Below, piece by piece: positions 1-21,636 of a DNA stretch of 52,774 bases. Position 1 is the first letter of the stretch. Each line of letters starts with the position of its first letter. Both the position numbers and the translations under genes were made by a program. The stretch spans positions 1 to 52,774 of the forward strand of contig DAHUZY010000001.1 in NCBI GenBank assembly GCA_027314885.1, read 5' to 3'. The notes beneath the pieces are model-generated. The model was not told the origin of the DNA, searched no databases, and was given only the letters and a program-made list of their open reading frames with translations. This DNA comes from Candidatus Saccharimonadota bacterium (lineage in GTDB: Bacteria > Patescibacteriota > Saccharimonadia > Saccharimonadales > UBA4665).

Positions 1-746
1 TCGATGTAGGCCTGCATCAGTTCCTTTTGGGTTGGCAGCCGCCAGCTGTTGCCCATGCCCGAGCAGAGCTGGATGGCCGTCTTGTTGCCAACCGCCACGT
101 TATTGGTGCCGGAGGCGTCCCATGTCCAGGTGCTGCAGCCGCTGGTCACGAACGCCACGGTGCTGCTGCTGTTGGCCAGGCACTCGCTCCACCTGACGCC
201 GGTGCGCGGGTCCTGGTGGTCATCGCCGGTGACGCTGGGGCTGGGTACCGTCCAGGTGATGTTGGCGGTGCAGTTGGTGGTCTGGGTGACCGGTGCGCCG
301 TAGCTGTCTTGGTAGGCTTGCGTAGAGCAGGAAGTCGGGTTGGGATAGGTGCCGGTGGTTTGGGTGCGGCTGTTGCCGTAAAACGTTTGGCCGCTCTTGA
401 CGTCACTGGCGCTAGCGTTGCCGGAGGGCGCGAACTGGGCGGCTGTGCTGATACGGTTCCACATGGCGCCCCAGTCAGGCGTGTTCGTGGTCGTGCCGTA
501 GCCGTCGCTCGTCAGGGTATTGTACAGGCTAACTAGACGCGAGGTCAGGCCGTTGTCAGATCCGCCAGGGTAGCTCTCGGCGCGCACGTTCAAGGTTACT
601 CCAACCGTTAGGCCCAGCGCCGCCAGCACGATCAGCGCCGTTTGGAAGTTGCGGTTCCTGATAAGCTTGGCGTAGTTAATTCGCCTGGTCTTGGTTTGCC
701 TGGGTGTTTGCGGGTGTTCTTGGTTTTGTGATTGCCCCGGAGCCAT
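1..746 (-). CDS. Membrane-anchored protein with DUF1566 (Lcl C-terminal)-like domain; C-terminus cut by window edge
   Basis: Absent from the ORF track because it runs off the left edge. Reverse ATG at 746-744 follows a GGAGG-type RBS (tcctccctc on + strand, 751-759). Translation MAPGQSQNQEHPQTPRQTKTRRINYAKLIRNRNFQTALIVLAALGLTVGV... has one TM helix. It ends ...DPRTGVRWSECL...AIQLCSGMGNSWRLPTQKELMQAYI, matching the TG-x-W and WRLPT-x-x-EL signature recalled for DUF1566. Confidence 0.6.
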   Translation of the reverse strand, partial: MAPGQSQNQEHPQTPRQTKTRRINYAKLIRNRNFQTALIVLAALGLTVGVTLNVRAESYPGGSDNGLTSRLVSLYNTLTSDGYGTTTNTPDWGAMWNRISTAAQFAPSGNASASDVKSGQTFYGNSRTQTTGTYPNPTSCSTQAYQDSYGAPVTQTTNCTANITWTVPSPSVTGDDHQDPRTGVRWSECLANSSSTVAFVTSGCSTWTWDASGTNNVAVGNKTAIQLCSGMGNSWRLPTQKELMQAYI

Positions 747-780
747 AGTTCCTCCCTCTTAGTAGCTTCGGCTGTTGGCT

Positions 781-811
781 ATTATAGCAGGTTTTGCTAG
801 TGTCTCGTCAA
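781..811 (-). promoter_or_regulatory. Sigma70-like promoter for the DUF1566-like gene
   Basis: Reverse strand reads TTGACG (811-806), a 19-nt spacer, then TATAAT (786-781), about 35 nt upstream of the ATG at 746. The spacer is one or two nt longer than optimal. Confidence 0.4.
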
Positions 812-835
812 AAGCCTTATGCTTCAACCCTTATT

Positions 836-1033
836 TTAGTCCTCGGCGCCACGGCGCGCAAGCCGTTTTGAGCCGGTCATCGCGCGCAGCTGGCGTGACC
901 GCCGTGTCCGGCAGGCGTCTGAGCAGGATATGGCGTCGCTGCGGCCTTTGAAGACTTTGCCACAGACCGGGCAGATTTTGTTTTTCCTGCGCCGCCGCGG
1001 AGTTATCTCGGATGGGCTGGTTAACTCTCTCTC
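836..1033 (-). CDS. Zinc-ribbon paralog with no start codon of its own (possible fusion or slippage partner of 1021..1179)
   Basis: The reverse frame is open from 1033 to TAA at 838-836. It encodes ...RRRRKNKICPVCGKVFKGRSDAISCSDACRTRRSRQLRAMTGSKRLARRGAED. The C-x2-C...GRSDA-x2-CSD-x-CR motif matches the upstream ORF. No ATG/GTG/TTG lies before the CxxC in this frame. Confidence 0.35.
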   Translation of the reverse strand, partial: ERELTSPSEITPRRRRKNKICPVCGKVFKGRSDAISCSDACRTRRSRQLRAMTGSKRLARRGAED

Positions 1034-1179
1034 TCAAACTTTTCGGCGGCCTCAATGGCCGCCCGGGCTTTGCGGTTGCGTTCCAGGCGCTTGCGGCACG
1101 TGTCGGAGCAGGTCTTGGCGTCGCTTCTGCCCCGGAATCGCTGTTCGCACATCAGGCACGTCTTGTTTTTAGTTTTCAT
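1021..1179 (-). CDS. Small zinc-ribbon protein (52 aa)
   Basis: Below the ORF-track size cutoff. Codon-by-codon translation from ATG 1179-1177 gives MKTKNKTCLMCEQRFRGRSDAKTCSDTCRKRLERNRKARAAIEAAEKFERES, with stop TAA at 1023-1021. The CxxC plus CSDxCR pair suggests a 4-Cys zinc ribbon followed by a basic tail. Confidence 0.55.
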   Translation of the reverse strand: MKTKNKTCLMCEQRFRGRSDAKTCSDTCRKRLERNRKARAAIEAAEKFERES

Positions 1180-1253
1180 GATGGTCAACCCTCACGCCTT
1201 AAAGCCAATTATACCCTAAGCGGCAAGGCTGTCCGGAGGTAAAAAAGTCCTTG

Positions 1254-1365
1254 CTTTACGTAATCTCCCATTGTACGCCCCGTACCAGGCCGGCAAGGTA
1301 GTACGATCGTCTCCACCTTGCCACCCTGGCCTTGCGGGGCACTTGGTTACTTCCGTTACGTAAAG
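1254..1365. repeat. 10-bp inverted repeat enclosing an 8-bp hairpin, in the divergent intergenic region of the element
   Basis: ctttacgtaa (1254-1263) and ttacgtaaag (1356-1365) are reverse complements. Inside them, ggcaaggt (1292-1299) pairs with accttgcc (1315-1322). The direct repeat cggcaagg occurs at 1221 and 1291. Confidence 0.6.
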
Positions 1366-1574
1366 TAAGGGGGGTAGTATATGCGCGTAGCGAGACTATC
1401 AAATCAAGACGCCACATTGGTCGATTGGCGCTTGAAAAAGCAGCTCTCAAAGAGGTCTGCGCTTGTCGGTACTACGACTTGCGCGACAATCTGGCAGAGA
1501 CCAGCTCATTAGAGCTGCTGCGCATCATCAACCATAACTACGACTGTGCTGGTTGCGGTCGGAAAGGAGTCTGA
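1332..1574 (+). CDS. Hypothetical protein (start uncertain)
   Basis: ORF-track ORF with a TTG start. Its stop TGA (1572-1574) lies 2 nt before the next ATG (1577), suggesting coupling. The C-terminal part LALEKAALKEVCACRYYDLRDNLAETSSLELLRIINHNYDCAGCGRKGV looks protein-like. No family recognised. Confidence 0.3.
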   Translation: MRGTWLLPLRKVRGVVYARSETIKSRRHIGRLALEKAALKEVCACRYYDLRDNLAETSSLELLRIINHNYDCAGCGRKGV

Positions 1575-1576
1575 TC

Positions 1577-1843
1577 ATGGACGCCGCAGTTTGCACCTAC
1601 AACGGTTGGAGCAACCGTGAAACGTGGCTGGCCAGTCTGTGGCTGACCAACGACGACGGCAGCTATGTCCTGCAAGACGCGCTGCGTCAGCCCGGTGAGA
1701 TCTCCGACCAGGCCGACTACCTGGAGCAATCGCTTCGGGACCAGTTGGACGACGAGGTCGGTAACGCCAGTATGTGGCGCGATTTGCTGTCTACAGCATT
1801 TGACCGCATAAACTGGGTGGAGGTTATTGATAATAACCGCTGA
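1577..1843 (+). CDS. Small acidic hypothetical protein (NGWSNRETW...LWL motif), typical mobile-element cargo
   Basis: In frame with track ORF 1553..1843. AGGAG (1565-1569) sits 7 nt before ATG 1577. Product starts MDAAVCTYNGWSNRETWLASLWLTNDDGSY... The motif resembles small phage/plasmid proteins from memory only. Confidence 0.5.
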   Translation: MDAAVCTYNGWSNRETWLASLWLTNDDGSYVLQDALRQPGEISDQADYLEQSLRDQLDDEVGNASMWRDLLSTAFDRINWVEVIDNNR

Positions 1844-1874
1844 CGCTCGCGCCCTGAGCATGGCGCAAAACTGC

Positions 1875-2681
1875 TCAATTTAAGGACACAAGGGGTTTGG
1901 GCTTATACACATCAGACCATATTTTTTTGTGCGACTGGCTTGAGTCTTGCAGCGCTTTCAAGTTAGCTGTAAAAATCTTTAGATCGTCTATGCCGGCATT
2001 ATCTAGGACCTTGGCGGCATGGCGTTGCAGCTTTTGCTCGGTTTTGGCGTCCGGGCAGACAAATAGCACGGCCGGGTAGTCGGTGCCCGATCCGGCCTCC
2101 CACTCTCCCTCGTCGAAGTGCTCAATGACAGCCTCCAGCCGCTTCTTTACGAGGAAGAACTGCCCTTTGGGCAGAATGTCCAGCATATATTCGTTGGGCG
2201 GTGTTTTGGCCGTTGTTATGCGATTTAGGTACAGGGCTGGCTTGGGCTCGGGGAAGAAGTCATAGCCACCCAGCTCGTAGCGGGTGAAGATGTGGAATGT
2301 TTCAGGATAACTTTCCCTAAGTGCCAGGTAGGCTTTCATGGTGTCCAGGTGCTTATCTATGAATGAGTCATCAGCCTTATCGTTCCAGCTATAAGCGTGC
2401 AGCACCGGTTCATGGGCTATCGGATCGTCTCTTAAAAAGGCGATGCCCCGTCCGTCCAAGTAGTAACAGGCGCCTTTGCCCTGGAACTTGAAAGATTTAT
2501 CGTAACGCCTGCTCAGATAACCTTTGGCCCATAAAGTTTTCAGCAGGCTGTTGGTTACGGCCCGATGGCTATTGTTTCTATATGACATCAACAGTGACGA
2601 AGTAACAAACCTGAACTTGTAAACGAGTTTTAAGACGTGTACTTGTTTTGGATTAAGCTGGTAATCTTTAACGTTTTTCAT
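1875..2681 (-). CDS. Replication-relaxation family-like protein (N-terminal winged helix)
   Basis: Track ORF 1875..2792 trimmed to the internal Met at 2681. Product starts MKNVKDYQLNPKQVHVLKLVYKFRFVTSSLLMSY...LLKTLWAKGYLSRRY. This resembles the N-terminus of Replic_Relax proteins of actinobacterial plasmids and ICEs. The upstream 37 codons (MLLFRLSLYIIYV...) look non-coding. Confidence 0.55.
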   Translation of the reverse strand: MKNVKDYQLNPKQVHVLKLVYKFRFVTSSLLMSYRNNSHRAVTNSLLKTLWAKGYLSRRYDKSFKFQGKGACYYLDGRGIAFLRDDPIAHEPVLHAYSWNDKADDSFIDKHLDTMKAYLALRESYPETFHIFTRYELGGYDFFPEPKPALYLNRITTAKTPPNEYMLDILPKGQFFLVKKRLEAVIEHFDEGEWEAGSGTDYPAVLFVCPDAKTEQKLQRHAAKVLDNAGIDDLKIFTANLKALQDSSQSHKKIWSDVYKPKPLVSLN

Positions 2682-2959
2682 CCATAGTCCCGCTGGCTCT
2701 CTTCTGTCTGCTCCACGCTCCCGCCAAAGTTTAAACAACGCCTGGATTTCTAACACATATATTATATATAAAGACAGACGAAAAAGTAACATTCATATCT
2801 GTTACATTAATGAATACTTTATTACGCCGGCGTAATAAAGTCTTGGACACCATCTTGCCTATAGATAGCACCACTGTATACTGGTTTTTGAGAGGCTTGT
2901 GTTTCCTTGCGAGGATACAGAAGCCTTTCCTTTATATAGGGCGTGGTAGAATACACCTT

Positions 2960-3175
2960 ATGAGCTCGGATAAGACAAGGCAGCAGATTGCAGGCAGAAT
3001 CAGAGCGGCCAGGCTGGAGAGTGGCCTGACCCAAAACCAAGTGGCCGAGAAAGCCGGTATCAACGTGACTGTTTATGCCAAGATAGAACGCGGCGACGCT
3101 AAGCCGACTATTGAATCGCTCCGGAAAATCAGCCAGGCGCTTAAGATAAAGTCCTCGAAGATCCTGCCCTTTTAA
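2960..3175 (+). CDS. XRE-family helix-turn-helix transcriptional regulator (71 aa)
   Basis: Internal Met of track ORF 2810..3175. Product MSSDKTRQQIAGRIRAARLESGLTQNQVAEKAGINVTVYAKIERGDAKPTIESLRKISQALKI is a canonical Cro/C1-type HTH. It is divergent from the replication-relaxation gene. Confidence 0.8.
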   Translation: MSSDKTRQQIAGRIRAARLESGLTQNQVAEKAGINVTVYAKIERGDAKPTIESLRKISQALKIKSSKILPF

Positions 3176-3262
3176 CGTGTGCATAACTAAACATAAAAGG
3201 CTTGCAACTGTGCTCAAAGGCATAGTATACTGTGCTTGTAAGCATAGTTGGGGGCGAGCCAA

Positions 3263-3415
3263 ATGGGTAAACAGCAGCAGGCCAAATTACCGGCAACCAA
3301 GCAATACACGACCGAGGAACGGCTTGAGCTGCTTGCCAACCTGATAGTCGACCACATACTGGATGCTCAAGATAAAATTAAGGTTGTGGGCATAAAGCCA
3401 TGCTCGAGTATGTAG
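3263..3415 (+). CDS. Small ORF (50 aa) overlapping the recombinase start; possible directionality or accessory factor
   Basis: ATG 3263 to TAG 3413-3415 encodes MGKQQQAKLPATKQYTTEERLELLANLIVDHILDAQDKIKVVGIKPCSSM. It overlaps the recombinase ATG (3400) by 16 nt. No family recognised. Confidence 0.25.
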   Translation: MGKQQQAKLPATKQYTTEERLELLANLIVDHILDAQDKIKVVGIKPCSSM

Positions 3416-5196
3416 GAGAGGGCAACACGGTAGCGGCCATTCGGGTCTCCAGCGCCCGGCAGGTCATTGAGGGTGATTCTCCGGAAGCCCAACGCGAGCA
3501 GATCACCCGATACGCCCAAGTGAATAACCTGGCGATGCAGGCCTTTTTTACCGTCCAAGAATCGGCGTCACAAGAAGACATCCAACCCATGCAGCCGATA
3601 ATTGACTACTGCAAAAACCCGAAGCACAAGGTTGAAAACTTTATTATCAAGTCGATTGACCGTTTTACTCGAGGCGGATCGTATCAGTATAGCTACCTTA
3701 AAATGCAATTGGAGTGCTATGGCGTTAAGCTGATAGACATTCACGGCGTTATCCGGCCGGAAAAGGTCAACACCCTGGAACATCTCGGCGAGCAGTACCG
3801 TTGGAGTGTCTATGAGCCGTCAAAAAAGACAGAGATTCTGGAGGCCGAGCGGGCCCGCGACGAAATGCGCGACATTATGACCAGAATGATCGGCGCTGAA
3901 ATCCGCTACGCCCAGATGGGCTACTGGGTGCGCCGGGCGCCGTACGGTTTTCAGACCGACAAAGCCGAAACGATCAACGGCAAACGCTGCGTGCTAGTAC
4001 CTCATCCCCAGGAATCGGCGTTGGTCATCAAGATGTTCAAGCTGAGAGCACGCGGCACTATGACCGATCAAGAGATCGTCGACGAAGTAAACCGCATGGG
4101 CTACAAGAGCCGCATTGATTATATAAGAGACAAGCAGGACCGCACAAAAATTGTCCGTTTGCGCGGCGGCGTGCCTTTAACGGTCAAAGCGCTGCACAAG
4201 TACCTAAGAAAGCCAATTTATGCCGGGGTGAACGGTGAGAAATGGACACACGGCCAGCCGGTAAAATGCAGATTCAACGGATTGGTTTCGATAGACGTTT
4301 TTAATAAGGCCAACCGCGGCAAAATAGTCATAGCCGAGAAAAACGGCTTGGTCGCAATTTACCGCCAGAAACCGGATGCTAGGTTCTCTCAGAAAAACAC
4401 GTACTCGGCACAATACCCGTACAAAAAAGTAGTCAGATGCTCTACCTGCAGCCGAGCGTTGCTGGGCAGCGCCTCTCGCGGCAAATCGGGTAAACATTAT
4501 CCGGCTTATCACTGCTCAAATTACGGGCACCACTTCCGGGTTCCCCGGCCGGTCTTCAATGAGACGGTAGATCGGTTCTTAAAAAGGATTCAGCTGACTG
4601 ACAAGGGCGCCCAGCAGCTTAGCCGAGCAGTTTTGGATGTCTGGCAGAGACGGCAACAGGAGCTTAAGCAGGATGAGGTCAACATCGACGCCAAAATCCA
4701 GGAATTTGAGCTACAAGCCAAACTAACGGCCGACAAGCTTAAGTTCTTGAACAGCAAAACGGCCATTAAATACATGGAGGAGGACATTATGCGCGCAGAG
4801 GCTGAAATACATGCATTGCGGGAACAAAAGGCTAAAACCGCGAGTGACCAGTCGGCTGACATGCCCAATATTATGAGCTACCTACAGGACTTCCTGGAAC
4901 ACTTCGACGAATACCTGATTAACAGAGATGACGAGGTCGAAAAAGCCAAATATTTTGGCGTTTTATTTAACGAACCGCCCACCTTTGAAGATGTGCAAGC
5001 TGGCACACACGAGGTCACTAAAATTAAGGGATTAAACGAGCTGTTTAAGCTCAAAAACACAGGCAAGGTTCAATTGGTGGGCGAGGAGGGACTTGAACCC
5101 TCACGAGCAAAAGCTCACCAGATTTTGAGTCTAGCGTGTATACCAATTTCACCACTCGCCCATAGTAGCGGTTCTCACATAGGCTACAAGGGGTAA
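3400..5196 (+). CDS. Large serine recombinase (resolvase domain, recombinase domain, zinc beta-ribbon, coiled coil)
   Basis: AAIRVSSARQ holds the catalytic Ser motif and IDRFTRG is the resolvase DRLxR-like motif. GYWVRRAPYGF marks the recombinase domain. VVRCSTCSRALLGSASRGKSGKHYPAYHCSNYGHHF is the Cys-rich zinc ribbon, followed by a long coiled coil. The last 40 codons are antisense to tRNA-Leu and its flank. Confidence 0.9.
   Translation: MLEYVGEGNTVAAIRVSSARQVIEGDSPEAQREQITRYAQVNNLAMQAFFTVQESASQEDIQPMQPIIDYCKNPKHKVENFIIKSIDRFTRGGSYQYSYLKMQLECYGVKLIDIHGVIRPEKVNTLEHLGEQYRWSVYEPSKKTEILEAERARDEMRDIMTRMIGAEIRYAQMGYWVRRAPYGFQTDKAETINGKRCVLVPHPQESALVIKMFKLRARGTMTDQEIVDEVNRMGYKSRIDYIRDKQDRTKIVRLRGGVPLTVKALHKYLRKPIYAGVNGEKWTHGQPVKCRFNGLVSIDVFNKANRGKIVIAEKNGLVAIYRQKPDARFSQKNTYSAQYPYKKVVRCSTCSRALLGSASRGKSGKHYPAYHCSNYGHHFRVPRPVFNETVDRFLKRIQLTDKGAQQLSRAVLDVWQRRQQELKQDEVNIDAKIQEFELQAKLTADKLKFLNSKTAIKYMEEDIMRAEAEIHALREQKAKTASDQSADMPNIMSYLQDFLEHFDEYLINRDDEVEKAKYFGVLFNEPPTFEDVQAGTHEVTKIKGLNELFKLKNTGKVQLVGEEGLEPSRAKAHQILSLACIPISPLAHSSGSHIGYKG
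5075..5161 (-). tRNA. tRNA-Leu (anticodon CAA), type II with long variable arm, CCA encoded
   Basis: Reverse complement is GGGCGAGTGGTGAAATTGGTATACACGCTAGACTCAAAATCTGGTGAGCTTTTGCTCGTGAGGGTTCAAGTCCCTCCTCGCCCACCA. The acceptor GGGCGAG pairs with CTCGCCC. The anticodon stem CTAGA/TCTGG carries loop CTCAAAA. The variable arm is GAGC-TTTT-GCTC and the T arm is GAGGG-TTCAAGT-CCCTC. Confidence 0.93.
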
Positions 5197-5242
5197 TTGT
5201 ACTATACTTGGGTGTAAGGAGCCAGGGCTCTTAAATTTAAAT

Positions 5243-6541
5243 ATGGCAAATAATTCTTCGCAGCATGATCAGTCACACCATTCGCCAAATAGGGGGAAGT
5301 CTGCTCGGCATGATGAGGCTGCAGTAGAACTTATTAGGGATAAAGTCGATAAGCTCTATTCCGAAGAGCCTGATGTACAGATCGAGCTTGCCAAATCTGA
5401 AAATACGCCAGCACGCAGCAAGCATCAGGATTACATTCACACGCTACTTAACTCCGACAAGGGCCTCGCCACCATACAAACCGAGTGGCACGAATATTAT
5501 CAGCAGCTTCCAGATGACGAGAAGCGGCAGGTGTGGCAAGAGTTCTACGACAGCCAACCAAGTATTGCTCAGCATGTAAAACCATCCTCAGTGCCAGCCA
5601 AGGAGCCACAGCGGGTAGCAGCCAAAAGACGGGCAGAGCGCAAGATACGTCACTCCGGCAGTTCAGTAGATAACATCAAACAAAGTATCAAGGATACGGT
5701 CACTGGCGGCGGTAAACTTGGGGTAAAGCACCAGCTGCAATCGCTGCTTTTCGGCCTGAGTGTCGGTATAGTAGTGGTAATCATCTTTATGTTTGGGTTC
5801 TTTAACGAAGTATTCATAGCCCCATTTATTCAACCCAGCCGGGCACAGGCTGACACCCCTCTCATTATTGGCAACTCAACCATCGCACCAACTCCCACAC
5901 CAGAAGTTATTATTCCCAAAATAAATGTTGAGATTCCTGTCAACTATAGCGTTACGTCAACCAATGAGTCTGTAATTGAGAACGACCTGGAGGGCGGGGT
6001 AGTACACTATCCCTCGACGGTACTGCCGGGACAAGACGGCAATGCCGCCTTCTTCGGCCACAGCAGTAACAACATCTTTAACCCGGGAAAGTATAAGTTC
6101 GCTTTCGTGCTGCTGCATACGCTCGTAGATGGAGATACGTTTTACCTGACATACAACGACAAGGTCTACGTCTACAAGGTCATCAGCCACACAATAGTAA
6201 GCCCGAGTGACGTGAGCGTGCTCGGCCCAGTACCGGGTCAAACCGCAACGGCCACGCTCATAACCTGTGACCCGCCCGGTACCAGCATAAATCGCCTCAT
6301 CGTTGTCGGGAAGCAGATCAGCCCCAACCCGGCGGGCAATACTGCCGCAGCACCGACTGTCACTCCTGTTTCCACGCCCCCCTCTCAACTGCCTGGTAAC
6401 GGACCGACACTCTGGACCCGCTTTCTTTCCACTCTTTGGGGTAAGCTACTCGCAAGCGCAGTCGTTATCGCGGCTGCTATTTGGTTACTACGTGCATTCA
6501 ATCGCTACGCTCGCCGTAACCTGAAGCCGGACCACTCATAA
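5243..6541 (+). CDS. Membrane-bound sortase-family transpeptidase with long N-terminal extension
   Basis: Contains FFGHSS (catalytic His region), TLITCDPPGT (the TLxTC catalytic Cys) and NRLIVVG (conserved Arg). TM helices lie before the catalytic domain and at the C-terminus. Confidence 0.85.
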   Translation: MANNSSQHDQSHHSPNRGKSARHDEAAVELIRDKVDKLYSEEPDVQIELAKSENTPARSKHQDYIHTLLNSDKGLATIQTEWHEYYQQLPDDEKRQVWQEFYDSQPSIAQHVKPSSVPAKEPQRVAAKRRAERKIRHSGSSVDNIKQSIKDTVTGGGKLGVKHQLQSLLFGLSVGIVVVIIFMFGFFNEVFIAPFIQPSRAQADTPLIIGNSTIAPTPTPEVIIPKINVEIPVNYSVTSTNESVIENDLEGGVVHYPSTVLPGQDGNAAFFGHSSNNIFNPGKYKFAFVLLHTLVDGDTFYLTYNDKVYVYKVISHTIVSPSDVSVLGPVPGQTATATLITCDPPGTSINRLIVVGKQISPNPAGNTAAAPTVTPVSTPPSQLPGNGPTLWTRFLSTLWGKLLASAVVIAAAIWLLRAFNRYARRNLKPDHS

Positions 6542-8014
6542 ATCGGCTGGGGTAAGGAGTGGGGTTCGGTCCAGCATGACAGTCGGGGCAGTTTTACCTG
6601 CAGCAAGCGTAAATACATAGTCATAATTCGTTGCAAAGAAAGGTAAGTACGAGCTGCTGGCAGGCATGAGCGTTTGCTCGTTGGTGCCATCGTAATCGAA
6701 AACAATCAGCTTGCCGCCGCTCACGTATGTCAAACGGTCACCGTCCATCCAGCTGGCACTAACTTGTGGCGCTTGAAGCGGGAAGTGCATAGTGTATGTG
6801 TAAGCTTTCTGATTCTCGAAGTTATAGACAGCGAAATGGGTACCGCTTTCAGCCACAATAAATTGGGCGTTGCCTGAAAACTTAAGAAAGTTCGGGTTAT
6901 GGAGATTAAATATCTGGCTCGGGATAATGGTGCCTTGTTGATTATTGTATTGGCTGATCGGGTCTTGATAAATATATACCTGGCCGCTTGCAACATCTCC
7001 GGCAACTACATAGGGTGTACCGTTGTAGGTAGTGAGGTTCAGCAGGTATGTCGGGCTCGCCGGCAGGGTTCTGACTGTTATAGTCTGGCCATTAGAGATT
7101 AGCTTCAAAAATACTTCACCCTTTGGCGCACCGCTCGCCGTTACATACAGCACGGTGTGATTACCATATGATTTATAGGCGAGGACGCCTTGAAGGAACG
7201 GCGTCAACGTATTACCGCTCGATAACGAGGCGGTCTCCAGCGTTTGACTGGCGGCGTTGTATATATAATAGTCGTTATACTTCTTATTAATCAGCGTCAA
7301 CTCAGTTGGTGATCCATACGTATTACTGAGATTAACGGACTGTGAAGGATTGGCGGTATCAACCATGATGTACTCTCTTTTGCCATCATAGATGTGGGTT
7401 AAGAGGACATGTTGGTTGTCATCAGCCCAGCCGTCAATCTTCCAGCTCTCAGACGATATAGCTTTACTCAGCAGACCGCTCGGCAGAGAGAATTGAGTCA
7501 TGACTGGCTTGGCCGAGTTTTTGAGGTTATAAAGATCAAAATTCGTGATACTCCCGGGTCGTTCGACCAACAGCCACTGCCGGCTTGGGCTTTGGGTGAC
7601 TAAGGGAGGAGCGGTACTGTACGTATGGACCCTTGAAGTGACGAGCTTTATTGGAAAGAGTACGGGATAGTCAAAATGTTCGACCGCACCGGCGTCAAAG
7701 GTAATGGTCCGCTGCCACGGACGATACCCGTTGCGTGTCAGTGTCACAGTATATACTCCAGAGGGCAGGAAGAGCTGAGTGTTTGTCTTGTTAGCATTAA
7801 GGACTCCATTAATATATATGTTAGCGGGATTTGGCTGGCTGGAGAGAAATACCAAGCCGCTTTGAATAACAGTATCGTTTTTGGATAGCCCGAAACCATA
7901 AGCCTGATACACCAGTACTAAGGTCGCGATGGCAATAACTAGAGTAACCAGCACGTAGCCGATCATCAAAACCAGATGATCACGGAGTTTTCGTTTGGGA
8001 TCAAGATAATCCAT
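6536..8014 (-). CDS. PEGA-domain membrane-anchored protein with beta-rich C-terminal region
   Basis: An N-terminal TM (LVLMIGYVLVTLVIAIATLVLVY) is followed by SSQPNPANIYINGVLNANKTNTQLFLPSGVYTVTLTRNGYRPW, which fits the PEGA pattern. Confidence 0.7.
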   Translation of the reverse strand: MDYLDPKRKLRDHLVLMIGYVLVTLVIAIATLVLVYQAYGFGLSKNDTVIQSGLVFLSSQPNPANIYINGVLNANKTNTQLFLPSGVYTVTLTRNGYRPWQRTITFDAGAVEHFDYPVLFPIKLVTSRVHTYSTAPPLVTQSPSRQWLLVERPGSITNFDLYNLKNSAKPVMTQFSLPSGLLSKAISSESWKIDGWADDNQHVLLTHIYDGKREYIMVDTANPSQSVNLSNTYGSPTELTLINKKYNDYYIYNAASQTLETASLSSGNTLTPFLQGVLAYKSYGNHTVLYVTASGAPKGEVFLKLISNGQTITVRTLPASPTYLLNLTTYNGTPYVVAGDVASGQVYIYQDPISQYNNQQGTIIPSQIFNLHNPNFLKFSGNAQFIVAESGTHFAVYNFENQKAYTYTMHFPLQAPQVSASWMDGDRLTYVSGGKLIVFDYDGTNEQTLMPASSSYLPFFATNYDYVFTLAAGKTAPTVMLDRTPLLTPADL

Positions 8015-8113
8015 GTATTTTAGTATGAACTACTCTTGCCTCTAACCACAAGAGGGTTTAAGATAGGTATAGTATTACATATACTCGCAAGTGGCGGTAG
8101 GTGTGAACAAAAA

Positions 8114-9235
8114 ATGAGTAAGACTATAGAGATTCAAGGACAGCTATATGATGCAGAAAGCGGTAGCCCACTAGGGGCTTCGCCGATTAATACTGCCCAG
8201 CCATATGCCGCCCGGCCACGGCCAAGCTATATCCAACCCCGTCAACAAATAGACCGAGCTCTGCCGCAGCGCCCAGCCATAAATGCCCTCAAAGCTCACG
8301 CACCTGAACCAACGCCTGTGCTTATGCGCAGTGCGGTTAAGAGGCCGGCTCCGTATCAGACAATTCGCACAGCTCGACCTCCACAACTGATTGACCAAGT
8401 GAAGCCTGTACAACCAGCCCGGCCAATGCAACAGACACAAACGATGCCTCAAACAGTCAACCAGCAGTTACGAAACACGGGTGCGCCATTGAACCGTACC
8501 GTCAACTATTTCTCACCACCCGTTGCTACACCATCCCCGGCCACACCACCCGTTGCTACACCATCCCCGGCCACACCTCCCCCCCTTACGCCAACACCTA
8601 CTCCTATACCGCCATCTCTACAGCCGGCGCCAACGTATACACCGCCTACATCTGGCCCAATTTCCGCACCCTCTCAGTCACCAAACAGTGGCGATGTATT
8701 CACTCATGCACTTGAGGCATTCTCAGAGGACCAATCGGCCCACGAGCCACGGGCAGCCAAGCGACGGGGTCGCTCAAAACGGCGCCTCGCGTTCATGACC
8801 GCCGTCCCCGTTATGCTGCTCGCGATTGGCATCATCATGATCGTGAAAGACCATGCCTATACGCGTCTGCAGCTCGCCCTTGCTTCAGCGTCGGCCGGCT
8901 TTCGTACCACAGAGCCCGGTTACGTACCTGCAGGGTATAACGTTGGTCAGCTTAATTACAAGAAAGACGTCTTTGCGAGCACCTTTACTGATAAAACAAA
9001 CGGCAAGACGTACACACTCACTGAAAAGAAAGTGGGTGGAAATGGACAGGTTTTGCTGGAAACCTACGTGGCAATAACATACCCTCATTACCAATCGGTG
9101 AGTCGCAGTGGCCAAACAATCTATCTATATGGCAACGGTACAGCTTCATGGGTTAAGAATGGCATTTGGTATCAGGTGACCAGTCATGGCTCCCTCAATA
9201 ACTTCCAACTGATCAATGTAGCAGACAGCATATGA
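8114..9235 (+). CDS. Proline-rich single-pass membrane protein with DUF4367-like C-terminal domain
   Basis: Internal Met of track ORF 8036..9235 (MSKTIEIQGQLYD...). It has a long P/T/A-rich segment, a TM (LAFMTAVPVMLLAIGIIMIV) and a C-terminal GYVPAGYNVGQLNY...YTLTEKK...IYLYGNGTASWVKNGIWYQV. The C-terminus resembles DUF4367 from memory. Confidence 0.55.
   Translation: MSKTIEIQGQLYDAESGSPLGASPINTAQPYAARPRPSYIQPRQQIDRALPQRPAINALKAHAPEPTPVLMRSAVKRPAPYQTIRTARPPQLIDQVKPVQPARPMQQTQTMPQTVNQQLRNTGAPLNRTVNYFSPPVATPSPATPPVATPSPATPPPLTPTPTPIPPSLQPAPTYTPPTSGPISAPSQSPNSGDVFTHALEAFSEDQSAHEPRAAKRRGRSKRRLAFMTAVPVMLLAIGIIMIVKDHAYTRLQLALASASAGFRTTEPGYVPAGYNVGQLNYKKDVFASTFTDKTNGKTYTLTEKKVGGNGQVLLETYVAITYPHYQSVSRSGQTIYLYGNGTASWVKNGIWYQVTSHGSLNNFQLINVADSI
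8516..8575 (+). repeat. Perfect 30-bp tandem duplication inside the proline-rich CDS
   Basis: ccacccgttgctacaccatccccggccaca occurs at 8516-8545 and again at 8546-8575, encoding PPVATPSPAT twice. Confidence 0.9.
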
Positions 9236-10662
9236 CAAATACGGTGCGTACCCGTTTTGCGCCCAGCCCTACCGGCTATCTGCACGTCGGGGGAATTAGG
9301 ACCGCGCTCTTTGCCTGGCTGACAGCCAGACAGCATAACGGTGCTTTTATACTTCGCTTTGAAGATACAGATAAGACACGCGAGGTACCGGGTGCCCGCC
9401 AGCATGTCATTGAGAGCTTAAGGGCAGTTGGCATAGATTACGATGAAGGCCCGGATAAAAGCGGGCCCTACGGACCCTATGTGCAGAGTGAGCGGCTCGA
9501 TATATATCATGAATGGGCGGAAAAACTACTGGCCAGCGGCCGAGCCTATGTAGATCCGTATACCGCCGAGCAGGTGCAGGCCTTCCGAGAAGCAGCACAG
9601 GCCAGTCATCAACCGTTTTTGTTTCGTAACCATCGTCCTGAACAAAAACTAAAGTGGGATGGACAGAGCCCGCTCAGATTCATGAGCCAGCCTAAAGCAT
9701 ATAAGTGGCATGATGTCGTAATGGGGGATTTACAGAGTGGACCAGAAGTGATTGACGACTTTATACTTATTAAGTCTGATGGCTTCCCGACATATAACTT
9801 CGCTCATATTATTGACGATTATGAAATGAAAATATCGCATGTCATGCGTGGACAGGAATTTCTCGCCAGCGTACCGAACTACCTTAATCTATATGAAGCA
9901 CTCGCATTCACCCCGCCGCTGCTCGTCACATTGCCGCATATCCTAGCTCCGGAAGGTAACCGTAAACTGAGCAAAAGAGACGGCGCTACAGACGTACTTG
10001 ACTATATTCGTTTGGGCTACCCGCCTGATGCCTTAATCAGCTTTATTGCCACGCTTGGGTGGAATGACGGTACCGAACAGGAAGTTTTTACTCGGGACGA
10101 GCTTATCCAGAAGTTTAGTTTAAAGAGAGTCCAAAAGAGCGGAGCACACTTCGATGAGCGTCGACTTAACTGGATTAGCGGTACCTATATTCGGAACATG
10201 CCGCTTACCGACCTATCCTTGCAAGCTGCCTCGTATTGGCCCGAGGAAGCTGCCGACGCCAGCGATGAGTATAAAAAACGCGTTCTCTCGCTTGTGCAAG
10301 AACGGCTGAAATATCTTTCCGAGCTAGCAGCTCTCAGCCGCTTCTTCTTTGTTGACTTACCGGTTGATCTGGACCTCATTGTCAAGGATAAGAAACTCAG
10401 TAAGCTGGGAATGCCTGAGTTGAAAGCTATGCTTACTTCGGCTCGAGAGACTTTGGAAACAACCAGCTTTTCAGTAACTGAGCTCACCGCTCAACTTAAT
10501 CAACTACTTGTAAGTCTTTCACAAAAACCAGCAATCCTTTTCAGCCTGATCAGAATTGCGGTTACTTCGGCTCCCTCAAGCCCCGGACTGGCTGACACGC
10601 TGGCAGTCCTCGGCAAGGAATGCAGCCTCCGCCGCATTGATGCTTGGCTCAATAACCTGTAG
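9232..10662 (+). CDS. gltX: Glutamate--tRNA ligase
   Basis: RFAPSPTGYLHVGGIRTALF is the HIGH motif and KLSKRDG is the KMSKS motif. Length is 476 aa. Confidence 0.95.
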   Translation: MTNTVRTRFAPSPTGYLHVGGIRTALFAWLTARQHNGAFILRFEDTDKTREVPGARQHVIESLRAVGIDYDEGPDKSGPYGPYVQSERLDIYHEWAEKLLASGRAYVDPYTAEQVQAFREAAQASHQPFLFRNHRPEQKLKWDGQSPLRFMSQPKAYKWHDVVMGDLQSGPEVIDDFILIKSDGFPTYNFAHIIDDYEMKISHVMRGQEFLASVPNYLNLYEALAFTPPLLVTLPHILAPEGNRKLSKRDGATDVLDYIRLGYPPDALISFIATLGWNDGTEQEVFTRDELIQKFSLKRVQKSGAHFDERRLNWISGTYIRNMPLTDLSLQAASYWPEEAADASDEYKKRVLSLVQERLKYLSELAALSRFFFVDLPVDLDLIVKDKKLSKLGMPELKAMLTSARETLETTSFSVTELTAQLNQLLVSLSQKPAILFSLIRIAVTSAPSSPGLADTLAVLGKECSLRRIDAWLNNL

Positions 10663-14531: not shown

Positions 14532-14871
14532 CGACACACTGGAGGAAAGTGAAAGCCTGCTTGCTATTCACAAAGGCTTTCCCAATCCGGCGCTAGAGAG
14601 AAAGCAGGGATTTGCACTCGACCTCAACCAGCTGCTGGTGCGGCAGCCGCGGAGCACCTACCTGTTTCGGGTTGCTGGTCATCGGCTCGCAGACCAGGGG
14701 ATATATGACGGTGACATTGTAGTCGTTGACCGGGCTGTCTCTGTTCGCCCAAATGACTATGTGCTCAATTGGCAAGAGGACAACTTCGGGCTGCGCCGTG
14801 GCCATCAACTCTTAGAGAACGACGAGCACTGGGGCGTAGTGACGGCCGTCATTCATCGGTATAGAATATGA
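14521..14871 (+). CDS. UmuD-like S24 peptidase-fold protein lacking the catalytic Ser/Lys dyad
   Basis: GFPNPALERKQGFALDLNQLLVRQPRSTYLFRVAGHRLADQGIYDGDIVVVDR aligns with E. coli UmuD [52 protein letters not shown]. GDSM is replaced by GHRL, and VKKL by LRRG. Confidence 0.8.
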   Translation: MQPDDTLEESESLLAIHKGFPNPALERKQGFALDLNQLLVRQPRSTYLFRVAGHRLADQGIYDGDIVVVDRAVSVRPNDYVLNWQEDNFGLRRGHQLLENDEHWGVVTAVIHRYRI

Positions 14872-16142
14872 GCACTCCCCGCTTTGCCCTGATTGATTGT
14901 GACAACTTCTTTGTGAGCTGTGAGCGCCTGTTCAGGCCTGACCTCACACATCAACCAGTAGTGGTATTAAGCAGCAACGACGGCTGCGTGGTATCGCGCT
15001 CCCGGGAAGCAAAGGCTCTCGGTATACCGATGGGTGCACCGGCGTTTCAGTACCGCACTTTCTTCCAAGAGCATCGTATTGTACAGTTCAGCGCCAACTT
15101 CGAACTTTACGGAGATATCTCCAAACGCTTGCTGGATTGCCTGCTGGCACTTACCCCTAGAGTGGAGGCCTACTCGGTTGATGAAGCATTTATAGATCTG
15201 GACGAACTGCCGGTATCTAATTGGCAGGAGTGGGGAAGTGTCATTCGTCGCCGTATCCTCAGAGATATTGGCGTACCGGTTTCAATCGGCATCGCACCAA
15301 CCAAAACTCTCGCCAAATTAGCTGCCAGCCAGGCCAAGCATTTACCCATACTCCGCGGGGTACTCGCACTACAACCAGAAACCACTACGGGGTATCTACA
15401 AAATACAGCCATTGAAGATATTTGGGGTATTGGCCGGCGACTGACACCGAAACTGAAGGCAGCTGGCATCTATAGCGCCTACGACGTGCAGCAGTTACGA
15501 CCTCGGTACGCAAAACAGTTACTAGGCAGCATCCACGGCCGGCAGTTAGTAGCCGAGCTGAGCGGGCAAAGTTGCTATCCAATTGAGCTTGCCGCCCGGC
15601 AGCGGCAGAGCATTATGCACGGCCGTATGTTCGGTGAAGATACTGACCGGACCGGCGTCATCGAAGCCGCTATTGTGAGCCTCACCAACAAAGCAGCCAT
15701 GGGATTAAGGCGTGAGGGGTTGCTCGCTCAACGAGCCGCTATCGTCTTAAGTACCAACCGCCACAAGCCAGGCTATCGTCGGGTAGTCCGGTCGTTTGAG
15801 CTGGATCCACCAACCACTGACGGCGGGCAAATAGCCGCCCGACTAGTACACACCCTGGCGCCTGATTTAAGCGCTCACACTCCATATCACCGGGTCAATG
15901 TATTGCTCGATGGCCTCCTGCCTGAGCACAGTCTTCAGGCCGACCTCTTCAGGCAGCGGCTACCAGCGATACAAGCAACAAGGCGCCGCCTTGGGGCTAT
16001 CGACCGCATCAACGCCAAGTACGGCCCACGCACTATCCGCTCGGCAGCTGAAGACCTCAGCTCCGCTTGGCAACCAAAGCGAGCCTGGCGCAGCCCACGC
16101 TACACAACTCAGTGGCAGGAATTGCCGCTGCTCAGTCGATAG
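14868..16142 (+). CDS. umuC: Y-family translesion DNA polymerase, UmuC-like
   Basis: RFALIDCDNFFVSCERLFRPDLTHQPVVVLSSNDGCVVSRSREAKALGIPMG closely parallels the UmuC N-terminus. It overlaps the umuD-like stop by 4 nt. Confidence 0.9.
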   Translation: MSTPRFALIDCDNFFVSCERLFRPDLTHQPVVVLSSNDGCVVSRSREAKALGIPMGAPAFQYRTFFQEHRIVQFSANFELYGDISKRLLDCLLALTPRVEAYSVDEAFIDLDELPVSNWQEWGSVIRRRILRDIGVPVSIGIAPTKTLAKLAASQAKHLPILRGVLALQPETTTGYLQNTAIEDIWGIGRRLTPKLKAAGIYSAYDVQQLRPRYAKQLLGSIHGRQLVAELSGQSCYPIELAARQRQSIMHGRMFGEDTDRTGVIEAAIVSLTNKAAMGLRREGLLAQRAAIVLSTNRHKPGYRRVVRSFELDPPTTDGGQIAARLVHTLAPDLSAHTPYHRVNVLLDGLLPEHSLQADLFRQRLPAIQATRRRLGAIDRINAKYGPRTIRSAAEDLSSAWQPKRAWRSPRYTTQWQELPLLSR

Positions 16143-18605: not shown

Positions 18606-18783
18606 AATTTATAAACTATACACTCAATATAGATATTATACAAATATATTCATGCTCGTTATCTAAAGTATTGGGGCACGCTCATTCACTTCTCGAACAT
18701 CGAGCAAGGGAATTCATAGGGTGAGCCAGCTGGGAAATTCCTGGAAACCACTTTACGCTGTTTTGTTACACTTTGATTCGCAC

Positions 18784-19459: not shown

Positions 19460-19482
19460 AATAGTAATATTTTATTACTATT
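19460..19482. promoter_or_regulatory. Inverted repeat immediately upstream of the AbrB-type antitoxin (candidate operator)
   Basis: aatagtaat (19460-19468) and attactatt (19474-19482) are perfect reverse complements separated by 5 nt. The repeat directly abuts the start codon at 19459. Confidence 0.4.
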
Positions 19483-20096: not shown

Positions 20097-20105
20097 TACG
20101 GGTTA

Positions 20106-21236: not shown

Positions 21237-21243
21237 ACTCTAA

Positions 21244-21534: not shown

Positions 21535-21597
21535 CTAGGCCACCCGGTTTATAAGGACATTGCCCCGAAATTCTTCGGTGGAACCAATTATTAAATT

Positions 21598-21621: not shown

Positions 21622-21636
21622 TGCTACCATAATAAT

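Follow-up and report, generated by a model that had tools for sequence, protein, structure and literature searches.

The first 5161 bases of the window (the whole 52,774-nucleotide stretch analysed, which is contig C11 from its first base onward) are best explained, with a probability of roughly 0.75 for the reading as a whole, as an integrative element of Saccharibacteria and related candidate phyla that sits at tRNA-Leu(CAA), carries a DGR-target gene as cargo, and came from a GC-richer source within the same order. In the visible part, a large serine recombinase (LSR) gene abuts the tRNA at one end, and at the other the contig start truncates an Lcl_C/DUF1566 gene. ORF and family matches agree with the cargo named in a preliminary description (XRE, a Replic_Relax-like protein, zinc ribbons, a small acidic protein and a DUF1566-like protein), and its label of ICE-like also holds, in the form ICE/IME-like. 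The features are as follows.

3..746, minus strand: first 248 aa of an Lcl_C/DUF1566 (C-type-lectin-like) surface protein with a membrane anchor, the gene being cut off by the contig start
839..1033, minus strand: second zinc-ribbon stretch, paralogue of 1021-1188 (tblastn match 985-881, 54% identity)
1021..1188, minus strand: zinc-ribbon (treble-clef-like) protein, 55 aa (weak DUF2116 match, E 0.004; PHROG matches)
1553..1843, plus strand: DUF7249 small acidic protein (PF23907 E 5.8e-12, phrog_871 E 8.8e-12)
1875..2681, minus strand: Replic_Relax protein (PF13814, MOBC-type), 268 aa; the ORF extends to 2792, but translation probably starts at 2681
2813..2844: 32-bp near-perfect palindrome between the divergent genes Replic_Relax and XRE, whose intergenic region is AT-rich
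2960..3175, plus strand: XRE-family HTH regulator, 72 aa from the ATG at 2960, within a longer ORF from 2810 (HTH_3 E 1.3e-15)
3205..3250: 20-nt repeat, palindromic or tandem, upstream of orf55 and the recombinase
3248..3415, plus strand: orf55, 55 aa, overlapping the recombinase start by 16 nt
3400..5196, plus strand: LSR (integrase), 598 aa (PF00239 E 3.4e-8; phrog_95 integrase E 7.9e-34)
5075..5161, minus strand: tRNA-Leu(CAA), the sole copy in the genome and the integration target

Insertion site

On its right, the element ends at or within the 3' part of tRNA-Leu(CAA); on its left, it continues past the start of the contig. The site is empty in all six related genomes fetched, one of the same genus (G001) and five of the same family. 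These genomes show the order tRNA-Leu(CAA)-sortase-PEGA, and directly before it stand genes that are located on contig C5 in the present genome. Homology between the window and the same-genus empty site starts exactly at base 5075. The empty sites bear out the earlier proposal that a serine-recombinase element is integrated at the 3' end of this tRNA gene. A second att site or displaced tRNA fragment was found neither in this genome nor within about 10-13 kb in 10 relatives.

Recombinase and tRNA targeting

The conserved body of LSR ends near 5073, and its last 40 codons run antisense across the whole tRNA-Leu gene. Ser17 and a Cys/His cluster are invariant (11/11). A profile search recovered the catalytic domain of the TP901-1 integrase (E 2.3e-4), a single-sequence search of the PDB gave no match, and the Pfam Recombinase and Zn_ribbon_recom domains stayed under threshold. 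The database holds at least 1,805 relatives at E<=0.001, and LSR is present in 16 of 400 sampled genomes of the phylum.

The overlap with a tRNA gene is a property of the family. Of the 13 loci where LSR adjoins Replic_Relax, 10 have a tRNA that ARAGORN places antisense at the 3' end of LSR, and in an unbiased phylum sample the reading frame ran antisense into a tRNA 3' end at 16 of 18 loci. The loci without a tRNA (3/13 and 2/18) are L006, which is cut by the locus end, L010, which has masked bases, L017, L175, which is partial, and L181. At least 10 tRNA species are used, and in each of the 12 cases dissected LSR reads into the tRNA in the same frame. A second LSR of this genome (contig C17, 22% identical) also has an antisense tRNA at its 3' end. 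LSR represents an integrase type rarely seen at tRNA genes. Because its coding sequence spans the attachment region, the integrated and excised forms must encode different C-termini.

Replic_Relax protein and small features

The Replic_Relax protein scores 25.4 bits against PF13814 (cut-off 25.3), and 80 of 115 family members match. PF13814 is classed as MOBC by CONJscan, according to the consulted part of PMC5357655, and the excerpted text of PMC12857230 describes MOBC relaxases as PD-(D/E)xK enzymes, with TraX carrying an N-terminal winged HTH. The AF2 model (pLDDT 95.9) shares this feature as a MarR-like winged helix (Z 9.9), which takes up the VIA-align rows for the model. The best whole-chain Foldseek matches are FokI and N.BspD6I, endonucleases of like build, at a low TM of 0.33. 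The C-terminal domain is probably restriction-endonuclease-like, as in MOBC relaxases, a PD-(D/E)xK fold reading that rests on these low-TM matches, and the protein is a putative relaxase or origin-binding nuclease. The copy in the window may be inactive, since it has Ala at the 'PD' motif position that is Asp in 96 of 115 relatives. An LSR of 46-52% identity adjoins Replic_Relax in 13 of 35 loci.

A DUF7249 homologue stands beside Replic_Relax in 10 of these 35 loci, and by gene neighbourhood it is a conserved companion of the recombinase/Replic_Relax module. The palindrome at 2813..2844 is a candidate operator or oriT-associated site, and the repeat at 3205..3250 is a candidate regulatory site. 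Orf55 has no family match; speculatively, it could be an accessory or directionality factor. The zinc-ribbon stretch at 839..1033 has no canonical start codon and would join the upstream ORF frame only if the (CT)n run at 1024-1034 were 4 nt longer. One contig of run X5 has a CTCT insertion behind 1024.

GC-rich end gene and DGR

The end gene has a partial Pfam Lcl_C match (E 3.1e-4) and 144 homologues of about 275-315 aa, with a best identity of 72%. Its homologues are DGR targets. Among the 27 homologue loci with at least 1.5 kb downstream, Avd is present in 25 and RT in 22, and Pfam confirmed bAvd and RVT_1 at L153. The gene order in homologue loci is target-Avd-TR-RT, with a C-terminal variable region (VR). 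A VR/TR pair of 113-164 bp was found in all 12 Lcl loci examined, with nearly all mismatches at adenines of the template (18/18, 15/15 and 23/24 are examples). By homology, the end gene belongs to this family of DGR targets, which are hypervariable surface proteins.

The C-terminal residues of the protein (about 50), where the variable region is expected, lie beyond the contig edge. In homologues, the VR starts 19-28 nt past the residue aligned to aa 248 of the window protein, which places the contig start, on this alignment, about 20-30 nt short of the expected variable region. No RT (PF00078), Avd, VR or TR occurs anywhere in this 91.5%-complete assembly, so the DGR status of this copy is assigned by homology only, and its end gene is probably a DGR variable-protein gene. 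A Replic_Relax homologue also occurs in 8 of 64 Lcl loci. No Lcl match lies within 10 kb of Replic_Relax in the 35 loci from genomes, and the DGR is variable cargo rather than the core of the element.

Base composition

The preliminary description reported that GC rises leftward, and sliding-window GC and GC3 both confirmed this: the distal part of the element is compositionally foreign. GC is 0.644 at 1-500, 0.580 at 501-1000 and 0.542 at 1001-1500, against 0.470 for the 928,885-bp genome. The first of these has the highest GC among 8,980 sliding 500-bp windows (mean 0.471, sd 0.041, z 4.3). GC3 is 0.815 for Lcl, 0.75 for the zinc ribbon, 0.72 for DUF7249, 0.65 for XRE, 0.625 for LSR and 0.57 for Replic_Relax. 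The mean of 657 genome ORFs of at least 150 aa is 0.475 (sd 0.055), and the highest value outside the element is 0.639. The tetranucleotide distance is unusual for the first 2 kb only (rank 9/831, z 3.9), and windows from 1001 onward are average.

The GC excess could be a mere family trait of a Gly/Thr/Ser/Ala-rich lectin gene, without recent foreign origin. In 51 homologue loci, the GC of the gene (median 0.499) does exceed that of the rest of the locus (median 0.416), and the window gene has a GC2 of 0.569, where the genome averages 0.402. However, amino-acid composition does not account for the whole rise, because GC3 is raised as well: the Lcl gene lies 6.2 sd over the genome mean, and none of the 51 homologues reaches its value (median 0.457, max 0.751). 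The neighbouring zinc-ribbon and DUF7249 genes are also high (0.72-0.75), and the Lcl gene is absent from the same-genus genome and from all 23 family genomes sampled. A family trait is thus an unlikely explanation, and the foreign composition is best explained by the recent arrival of the element from a GC-richer member of the same order.

Lineage of homologues and origin of the element

DGRs and serine integrases are common in phages. A prophage remnant, with recombinase and DGR derived from a temperate phage, would fit the PHROG matches of LSR, DUF7249 and the zinc ribbon, but it is a very unlikely source. LSR has no match in 50,697 phage records, and no confirmed relative was found in IMG/VR contigs. 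Capsid, terminase and tail genes are absent from the visible part and from the ORFs listed at L003, L007, L010, L012, L018 and L019, a non-systematic look in which Pfam was run on 23 ORFs from L007, L018 and L153. Relaxase-like and secretion genes are present instead.

The preliminary description had suggested that the GC-rich distal genes came from a high-GC actinobacterial host, with the replication-relaxation gene as an actinobacterial signal. The high GC3 of these genes (0.72-0.82), one Lcl homologue named 'Mycobacterium sp.' (50% identity) and published integrative elements of Mycobacterium that have serine recombinases and lie at a tRNA-Leu gene (outlined in the available text of PMC3218068) would be in keeping with such a transfer. 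The homologues, however, indicate related bacteria rather than an actinobacterial host. The nearest relatives of every cargo gene tested are Saccharibacteria/Patescibacteria, the organism's own lineage. All 35 Replic_Relax genome loci belong to candidate-phyla MAGs and none to Actinobacteria (31 Saccharibacteria/Saccharimonadales, 2 'Patescibacteria group', 1 Woesebacteria and 1 labelled Limnocylindria), in a scan whose patterns came from a Saccharibacteria alignment and are blind to distant actinobacterial Replic_Relax proteins. A search of 72,556 plasmids matched neither Replic_Relax nor Lcl and gave LSR a single match (23%). The other named Lcl homologues, at 54-61% identity, are Saccharibacteria, Saccharimonadaceae or Patescibacteria. 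Among the best 120 of at least 1,805 LSR relatives, most entries are unnamed, and the names present carry candidate-division labels (Eisenbacteria, WWE3), none of them actinobacterial. The closest Lcl homologue among those whose DNA was read (L155, 59% identity) lies on a Saccharimonadales contig of GC 0.53, with a GC3 of 0.72-0.75 and neighbouring genes at about 0.7. Host-to-symbiont transfer is thus largely refuted already and extremely unlikely.

Assembly integrity

Run X1, possibly the source sample of this contig, contains independently assembled contigs that cover 2-3763 and 3738-5791, with depths of 7.5-8.5 across the element and flank. Run X2 bridges 4797-5525, and one of its contigs overlaps 1-373 and extends about 2.1 kb further left. 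These checks were made on contigs rather than raw reads, and the tables of X2 and X3 are identical and may be one data set. A chimeric join of the GC-rich first 1-2 kb to a foreign contig, or a binning artefact, would suit an anomaly at a contig end and a tetranucleotide outlier limited to 2 kb, but it is very unlikely given the continuous X1 contig 2-3763 without differences and at host-flank depth (7.9), the same stretch at >=99% in X2/X3 and X5, the recurrence of Replic_Relax then Lcl in 8 other metagenome loci, and a GC3 raised over the whole element rather than its end alone.

Proposed mechanism

Window 1-5161 would be the recombinase-proximal part of an integrative, mobilizable or conjugative element of a type apparently specific to Saccharibacteria and related candidate phyla. 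LSR would have put the element into the only tRNA-Leu(CAA) gene, at its 3' end, and the element would supply, or abut, the tRNA 3' part, antisense to the last codons of its own recombinase. The XRE repressor and the palindromic sites probably control the module. Replic_Relax is probably a MOBC-type relaxase or origin nuclease, and a type IV secretion system could then transfer the excised circle. Relatives encode such systems beside the module: at L007 and L018, genes for a coupling protein, CHAP or M23, VirB4, VirB6 and pilin come after it. This genome too has type IV secretion genes, at other places and with native composition, so adjacency in relatives need not mean self-transmissibility. 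The C-terminal lectin-like VR, Avd, TR and reverse transcriptase would be expected just beyond the contig start, and the assembly probably broke at the variable region.

Comparison with known systems

The consulted part of Coluzzi et al. (2017, PMC5357655) describes streptococcal IME class 8 as a combination of VirD4 coupling protein, PF13814/MOBC relaxase and serine integrase. In the present element, too, a serine integrase and a PF13814 protein form a compact module, and a VirD4-type coupling protein adjoins it in relatives L007 and L018. It differs from that class, so described, in its phylum, its integration at tRNA genes, its cargo with a DGR target and the lack of a coupling protein in the visible part; it also lacks detectable relatives in plasmid and phage collections, save the 23% plasmid match of LSR.

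Like the large serine integrases of phages and ICEs (TP901-1, Bxb1, phiC31, TnpX, Ccr), LSR begins with a resolvase catalytic domain that has the conserved Ser, contains a zinc-ribbon region rich in Cys, is of similar length (about 560 aa) and sits at the element edge. Those enzymes are described as not using tRNA attB sites in the available parts of PMC4383910 and PMC9262239, whereas in most members of the LSR family the 3' end of the gene overlaps a tRNA in antisense. The excerpted text of Ghinet et al. (2011, PMC3218068) reports rare tRNA-gene integrations by serine recombinases, namely Mycobacterium AICEs at tRNA-Leu and phage phiRSM at tRNA-Ser. Compared by description, these share the targeting of a tRNA gene, tRNA-Leu in one case, but the LSR family belongs to candidate phyla, with its large number of relatives and wide range of tRNA species.

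Legionella LdtA exemplifies DUF1566/CLec2-class DGR target proteins in the accessible part of Wu et al. (2018, PMC5758913). The end gene likewise encodes a short surface-anchored protein ending in a DUF1566/Lcl_C domain, and its homologues have the target-Avd-TR-RT order with a C-terminal VR. Unlike that class as described, this copy has no assembled VR, TR, Avd or RT, is carried by a serine-recombinase element and is far GC-richer than its host genome.

In the integration-dependent immunity of mycobacteriophages, as summarized in PMC9262239, attP lies inside a gene and integration changes the protein C-terminus. Here too a coding sequence crosses the attachment region at a tRNA; there a repressor gene and a tyrosine integrase are involved, whereas here it is the serine recombinase's own gene.

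Structure and insertion site of the element

The studied genome, G000, comprises 928,885 bp in 69 contigs with 47.0% GC, and the window starts at base 1 of contig C11. The following features make up the visible part of the element and its attachment site.

Features of the element, from the tRNA gene leftward
5075-5161, minus strand: tRNA-Leu(CAA), the sole such gene in the genome
3400-5196, plus strand: serine recombinase ORF, 598 aa
3248-3415, plus strand: 55-aa ORF
2960-3175, plus strand: XRE regulator
1875-2681, minus strand: Replic_Relax protein, 268 aa, start placed at Met38 of a longer ORF, as in homologues
1553-1843, plus strand: DUF7249 protein
1021-1188, minus strand: zinc-ribbon ORF with a paralogous stretch behind it
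746 to 3, minus strand: membrane-anchored Lcl_C/DUF1566 protein (Lcl), first 248 residues, cut by the contig start

The preliminary description had proposed a serine-recombinase element integrated at tRNA-Leu(CAA), and comparison with relatives bears this out. Homology of the same-genus genome G001 to the window begins at exactly base 5075. That comparison included the unpublished genomes G002 and G015, and G002 was also in the survey for the Lcl gene; none of the findings depends on either. In G001 and five other genomes of the family, tRNA-Leu(CAA), sortase and PEGA are directly preceded by the genes found on C5:11059-20456, another contig of G000, which places the element between C5-like DNA and the tRNA-Leu. 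The integrase and the putative relaxase both lie in the element and are both absent from the same, empty site in these six relatives, the combination by which integrative conjugative or mobilizable elements are recognized. Secretion genes adjoin the module in relatives only. The evidence is best read as an integrative, mobilizable element specific to Saccharibacteria, sitting at tRNA-Leu and carrying a target gene of a diversity-generating retroelement (DGR), with transfer predicted from its gene content.

The end of C5 (C5:20459-21223) was considered as the left junction. It holds a rhodanese-like ORF, tRNA-Ala(CGC) and 290 bp, of which only the tRNA matches relatives at the DNA level, and flank and element are not separable there by DNA match. 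This content is absent from the corresponding place in G001, and the spot is variable where the left junction of the element should be. Searches by blastn, for exact repeats of at least 12 nt and for fuzzy repeats (30 nt, at most 5 mismatches) found no second att copy or displaced tRNA-Leu fragment in G000 or in the loci of 10 relatives (10-13 kb available in each). This result says nothing either way, since the contig end cuts the element and a shared core of 2 bp is enough for serine recombinases. The elements probably extend beyond the 10-13 kb available.

A (CT)n run (1021-1034) forms the end of the 55-aa zinc-ribbon ORF, and one contig of the metagenome run X5 (depth 3.1) has 4 extra bases there. 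These bases would join the ORF in frame to the start-less paralogue behind it, so that 839-1188 would encode one protein of about 120 aa with two zinc ribbons. The pair may be a single frameshifted or phase-variable gene; a sequencing error is the other possibility.

Base composition and assembly of the element

A leftward rise in GC with a distal part GC-richer than the host was also claimed from the sequence, and sliding GC windows, GC3 and tetranucleotides confirm it. GC is 0.644 at 1-500, then 0.58, 0.54, about 0.50 at the recombinase and 0.46-0.49 in the flank; the first 500 nt have the highest GC among 8,980 windows of the genome (z 4.3). The three distal genes have GC3 values of 0.815, 0.75 and 0.72 and the proximal genes 0.57-0.65, against a mean of 0.475 (sd 0.055) for 657 ORFs of at least 150 aa, with 0.639 as the maximum outside the element. 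The excess is thus not just a matter of amino-acid content. By tetranucleotides, only the first 2 kb are an outlier (rank 9 of 831). In 51 homologue loci, the Lcl gene lies about 8 GC points above its surroundings, so part of its excess is a family trait; the GC3 of the window copy is above that of all 51 homologues (median 0.457, maximum 0.751).

A chimeric assembly join, the artefact that could produce such a shift, is unlikely. In run X1, possibly the source sample, an independent contig spans 2-3763 with no differences, and a second spans 3738-5791 over the recombinase, tRNA and sortase, with depths of 7.5-8.5 all along. In run X2, one contig bridges 4797-5525, and another of 2,505 nt shares window 1-373 and reaches about 2.1 kb farther left. 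A third study (X5) gave pieces of 529-3816 at 99% identity or more. This evidence consists of contigs rather than reads from runs labelled mine-drainage and soil metagenomes, and the numbers of run X3 are identical to those of X2, so the two may be the same data. A loose end at 5075 in X2/X3 was considered as an alternative junction and rejected; the extra depth is confined to the tRNA bin, and another organism's tRNA-Leu is probably its source.

Other compositional peaks were found in the genome. The strongest tetranucleotide outlier (z up to 8.8) and second GC peak is C66:19826-30924, which encodes two giant repetitive surface proteins (2,699 and 894 aa). GC3 is ordinary there (0.46-0.51), and the composition thus follows from the protein repeats. 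The part at C66:20-28 kb, with the 2,699-aa protein (GC3 0.51), was ruled out as a piece of the element, as were the small GC-rich contigs C60 and C64, which matched no query. Within the window, a Y-family polymerase gene (14868-16142, DinB/ImpB-like by eye) forms a local GC peak of 0.55-0.58 with a GC3 of 0.574, among the top ORFs. A polymerase-like N-terminus also occurs in ORFs beside the recombinase module at two homologue loci, L018 (6190-7431) and L010 (7504-8742).

Window 18700-22261 is low in GC (0.37-0.40) and abuts the 3' end of tRNA-Glu(CTC) (22187-22261, minus strand), with no recombinase present. Densely spaced pairs of small ORFs there resemble toxin-antitoxin modules by eye (PIN-like with AbrB- or Phd-like, RelE/ParE-like with ribbon-helix-helix). 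The stretch may be a remnant island, because the recombinase family uses tRNA-Glu(CTC) in loci L019-L021.

Lineage of the cargo genes

The GC-rich cargo had been put forward as a candidate host-to-symbiont transfer from an actinobacterial donor, an idea to be given up if the best hits fell within the organism's own lineage. G000 belongs to a Saccharibacterium, as shown by its size of less than 1 Mb, by core genes that are 42-61% identical and syntenic to named Saccharibacteria loci, and by the names attached to database matches. For the Replic_Relax protein, a word-indexed search gave 8 relatives and a full HMMER scan gave 1,051 cluster representatives. Its genome loci among 185,579 species genomes were all in candidate-phyla MAGs (35/35): 31 Saccharibacteria or Saccharimonadales, two named 'Patescibacteria group', one Woesebacteria, one labelled Limnocylindria and none from Actinobacteria, in a scan whose patterns came from a Saccharibacteria alignment and which locates close relatives rather than the absence of distant ones. 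There was no match in 72,556 plasmids. The locus labelled Candidatus Limnocylindria carries, besides the Replic_Relax homologue, a sortase 47% identical to that of the window, which suggests that a Chloroflexota MAG has taken in a contig from Saccharibacteria.

The Lcl protein has 144 relatives (best identity 72%) and no plasmid match; those with names at 54-61% identity are Saccharibacteria, Saccharimonadaceae or Patescibacteria. The name of one 50% relative (P0057, contig of 26.5 kb) assigns it to a Mycobacterium sp. isolate. This copy may be truly actinobacterial, or the assembly of an actinobacterial culture may have included a contig from Saccharibacteria. The recombinase has at least 1,805 relatives, and the best 120 are 51-57% identical; the named entries among these 120 bear candidate-division labels, with none from Actinobacteria. 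A plasmid search gave a single match at 23%; there was no phage match, and a scan with the recombinase alignment gave no confirmed relative in IMG/VR.

Closest homologues in Actinobacteria, by which an AICE or host-derived DNA would be recognized, were not found, and the nearest relatives of the cargo genes compared lie within Saccharibacteria and Patescibacteria. By the lineage of its best matches, the actinobacterial-donor idea fails on its own terms. The closest Lcl homologue with readable DNA (59% identity, locus L155 of genome G554) lies on a contig with a GC of 0.53, where neighbouring genes have a GC3 of about 0.7 and the gene itself 0.72-0.75. A GC-richer Saccharimonadales donor is thus plausible, and recent receipt of the element from such a GC-richer relative is the best reading. 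This removes a tempting case of host-to-symbiont transfer and explains the anomaly by gene flow among Saccharibacteria of differing GC.

Lcl gene as a probable target of a diversity-generating retroelement

The truncated Lcl protein covers positions 4-54 of the 117 in the Lcl_C profile at 21.5 bits (cut-off 34.9), and the full-length homologue at locus L153 scores 52.8 bits. Downstream of the Lcl homologue in distant Patescibacteria come an Avd-like four-helix protein and a reverse transcriptase (RT); bAvd and RVT_1 were confirmed by Pfam at L153. Out of 80 metagenome loci fetched with the Lcl protein, 64 had a tblastn Lcl match, of which 37 had Avd and 37 had RT. Among the 27 loci with at least 1.5 kb downstream, Avd was present in 25 (exceptions L068 and L109) and RT in 22. 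In all 12 loci examined, a repeat of 113-164 bp joins the 3' end of the gene to a copy between Avd and RT. Nearly all mismatches between this variable region (VR) and the second copy, the template repeat, lie at adenines of the latter (18/18, 15/15, 12/12, 23/24, 15/16 and so on), which is the signature of a DGR. DUF1566 targets have been described as a recognized DGR class (PMC5758913). L153 (12839-15988) and L084 contain several additional C-terminal fragments that resemble the VR, in part inverted, or a pair of template-like copies, which suggests cassette duplication or multiple targets.

In homologue loci, the VR starts 19-28 nt past the residue aligned to the last Lcl residue of the window, so C11 begins just where the hypervariable, repeated segment is expected. 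This segment plausibly caused the assembly break, and the window copy would be a DGR target by comparison with its homologues. RT, Avd and the C-terminal remainder of Lcl were not found on any other contig of the 91.5%-complete assembly. The gene is rare and patchy, with 7 of 400 sampled phylum genomes, 3 of 400 sampled same-order genomes and none of 23 sampled family genomes carrying it; it is also absent from G001. A contig break in a MAG can thus mark a hypervariable DGR target, and such genes would be systematically truncated or lost from bins.

Recombinase and its overlap with tRNA genes

The recombinase matches PF00239 at 34.1 bits (cut-off 23.3), and its Ser17, in the motif A-I-R-V-S, is invariant in 11/11 sequences. 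A profile match to the catalytic domain of TP901-1 integrase (E 2.3e-4) and a match to phrog_95 'integrase' over residues 12-504 (E 7.9e-34) were obtained. Cys347, Cys350 and His371-Cys372 are invariant, and PF13408 scored 17.2 bits, below its cut-off of 25.3. PF07508 was not reported for this protein and is precomputed on 6 of the best 120 of its at least 1,805 relatives. The XisF equivalog NF041201 gave 39.8 bits, far below its cut-off of 375, and a single-sequence PDB search gave no match. From the empty site in six relatives, the enzyme is predicted to catalyse attP/attB integration and excision.

The recombinase ORF reads antisense through all 87 nt of the tRNA-Leu and stops 35 nt beyond it. 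An antisense tRNA at the 3' end of the recombinase gene was present in 10 of 13 Replic_Relax-linked loci, the misses being L006, which the locus end truncates, L010, where bases are masked, and L017, which yielded no tRNA. In an independent set of 400 genomes of the phylum, 16 of 18 loci had one, with L175 (partial) and L181 as misses, and the distant recombinase at L069 also has one. In G000 itself, a second recombinase on contig C17, 22% identical to the first, has the same geometry at tRNA-Glu(TTC). This 524-aa protein (locus L157, C17:11605-13714) is encoded at a contig end, and its last 13 codons run antisense over the tRNA. On the other side of that tRNA lie a coupling-protein gene (6239-8761) and a GC3-rich gene (9281-10486) whose product is a secreted protein of 401 aa.

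Twelve cases, chosen for having a tRNA, were dissected. The entry frame was identical in all, and the acceptor and T-arm of the tRNA translate into a short motif with Glu-Pro at its end; the recombinase at tRNA-Glu stops 41 nt inside the tRNA. The targets seen were Leu(CAA), Glu(TTC), Glu(CTC), Gln(CTG), Gln(TTG), Ser, Phe, Gly, Arg(CCT) and Arg(TCT). The recombinase is a member of a large family associated with tRNA genes.

Taken together, these data can be tentatively read as a very large, undescribed family of candidate-phyla recombinases that integrates in the 3' parts of many tRNA genes (probability about 0.45). The tRNA-restoring segment of attP would be the antisense of the enzyme's own last codons, so that integration and excision would swap its C-terminal tail, and this swap could be a built-in switch of stability or directionality. 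Under the same reading, the elements would ferry DGR cassettes and diversify a surface lectin that episymbionts possibly use to attach to hosts.

Replic_Relax protein and its module

The 268-aa form of the Replic_Relax protein passes PF13814 marginally (25.4 bits, cut-off 25.3), and the 305-aa ORF scores 25.1 bits. The family is matched by 80 of 115 aligned relatives (best E 2.1e-18). A model built from the 115-sequence alignment reached a pLDDT of 95.9, against 48.8 for a poor model from 9 sequences. Its first 100 or so residues form a winged helix-turn-helix, which superposes on MarR-family chains (Z 9.9, rmsd 2.3 A over 77 residues, model residues 8-88). Foldseek with the whole chain ranked FokI (E 3.7e-4) and the nickase N.BspD6I highest, at TM scores of at most 0.33 and with the C-terminal domain compared as part of that chain. 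Residue 149, the Asp of a 'PD' motif in 96 of 115 relatives, is Ala in the window protein; this position is putatively catalytic, and the window copy may be crippled.

Beside Replic_Relax in the 35 genome loci, a 46-52% identical recombinase is found in 13, DUF7249 in 10 and XRE in several. Eight of the Lcl/DGR metagenome loci also have a Replic_Relax homologue, which at L070 lies directly upstream of Lcl-Avd. At L007 and L018, the module is followed by genes for a coupling protein, a CHAP or M23 hydrolase, VirB4-like, VirB6/TrbL and pilin proteins, and at L153/L154 a coupling/secretion-type cluster abuts the DGR. The secretion genes of G000 are on other contigs. The proximal module is a conserved core of Saccharibacteria elements.

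Comparison with known systems

Serine recombinases have been stated not to be known to target tRNA genes (PMC4383910), and the serine integrases of mycobacteriophages are described as not targeting them (PMC9262239). Another account treats such sites as rare, with Mycobacterium AICEs at tRNA-Leu and phage phiRSM as examples (PMC3218068). No literature on tRNA-targeting serine recombinases in Saccharibacteria or Patescibacteria was found in a search with little coverage of subscription journals, and an earlier description is possible. If the proposed reading is true, the family goes against the usual view that serine integrases avoid tRNA attachment sites and points to a large group with natural tRNA targets. 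Such enzymes would matter for the genome plasticity of ultra-small symbionts and, with target sites that are short and conserved, would be candidate tools for site-specific integration.

PF13814 has been treated as a MOBC relaxase family (PMC5357655). MOBC relaxases are described as PD-(D/E)xK enzymes, and TraX among them has an N-terminal winged helix-turn-helix (PMC12857230). The streptococcal element class reported with this family pairs a serine integrase with PF13814 and a VirD4 coupling protein (PMC5357655).
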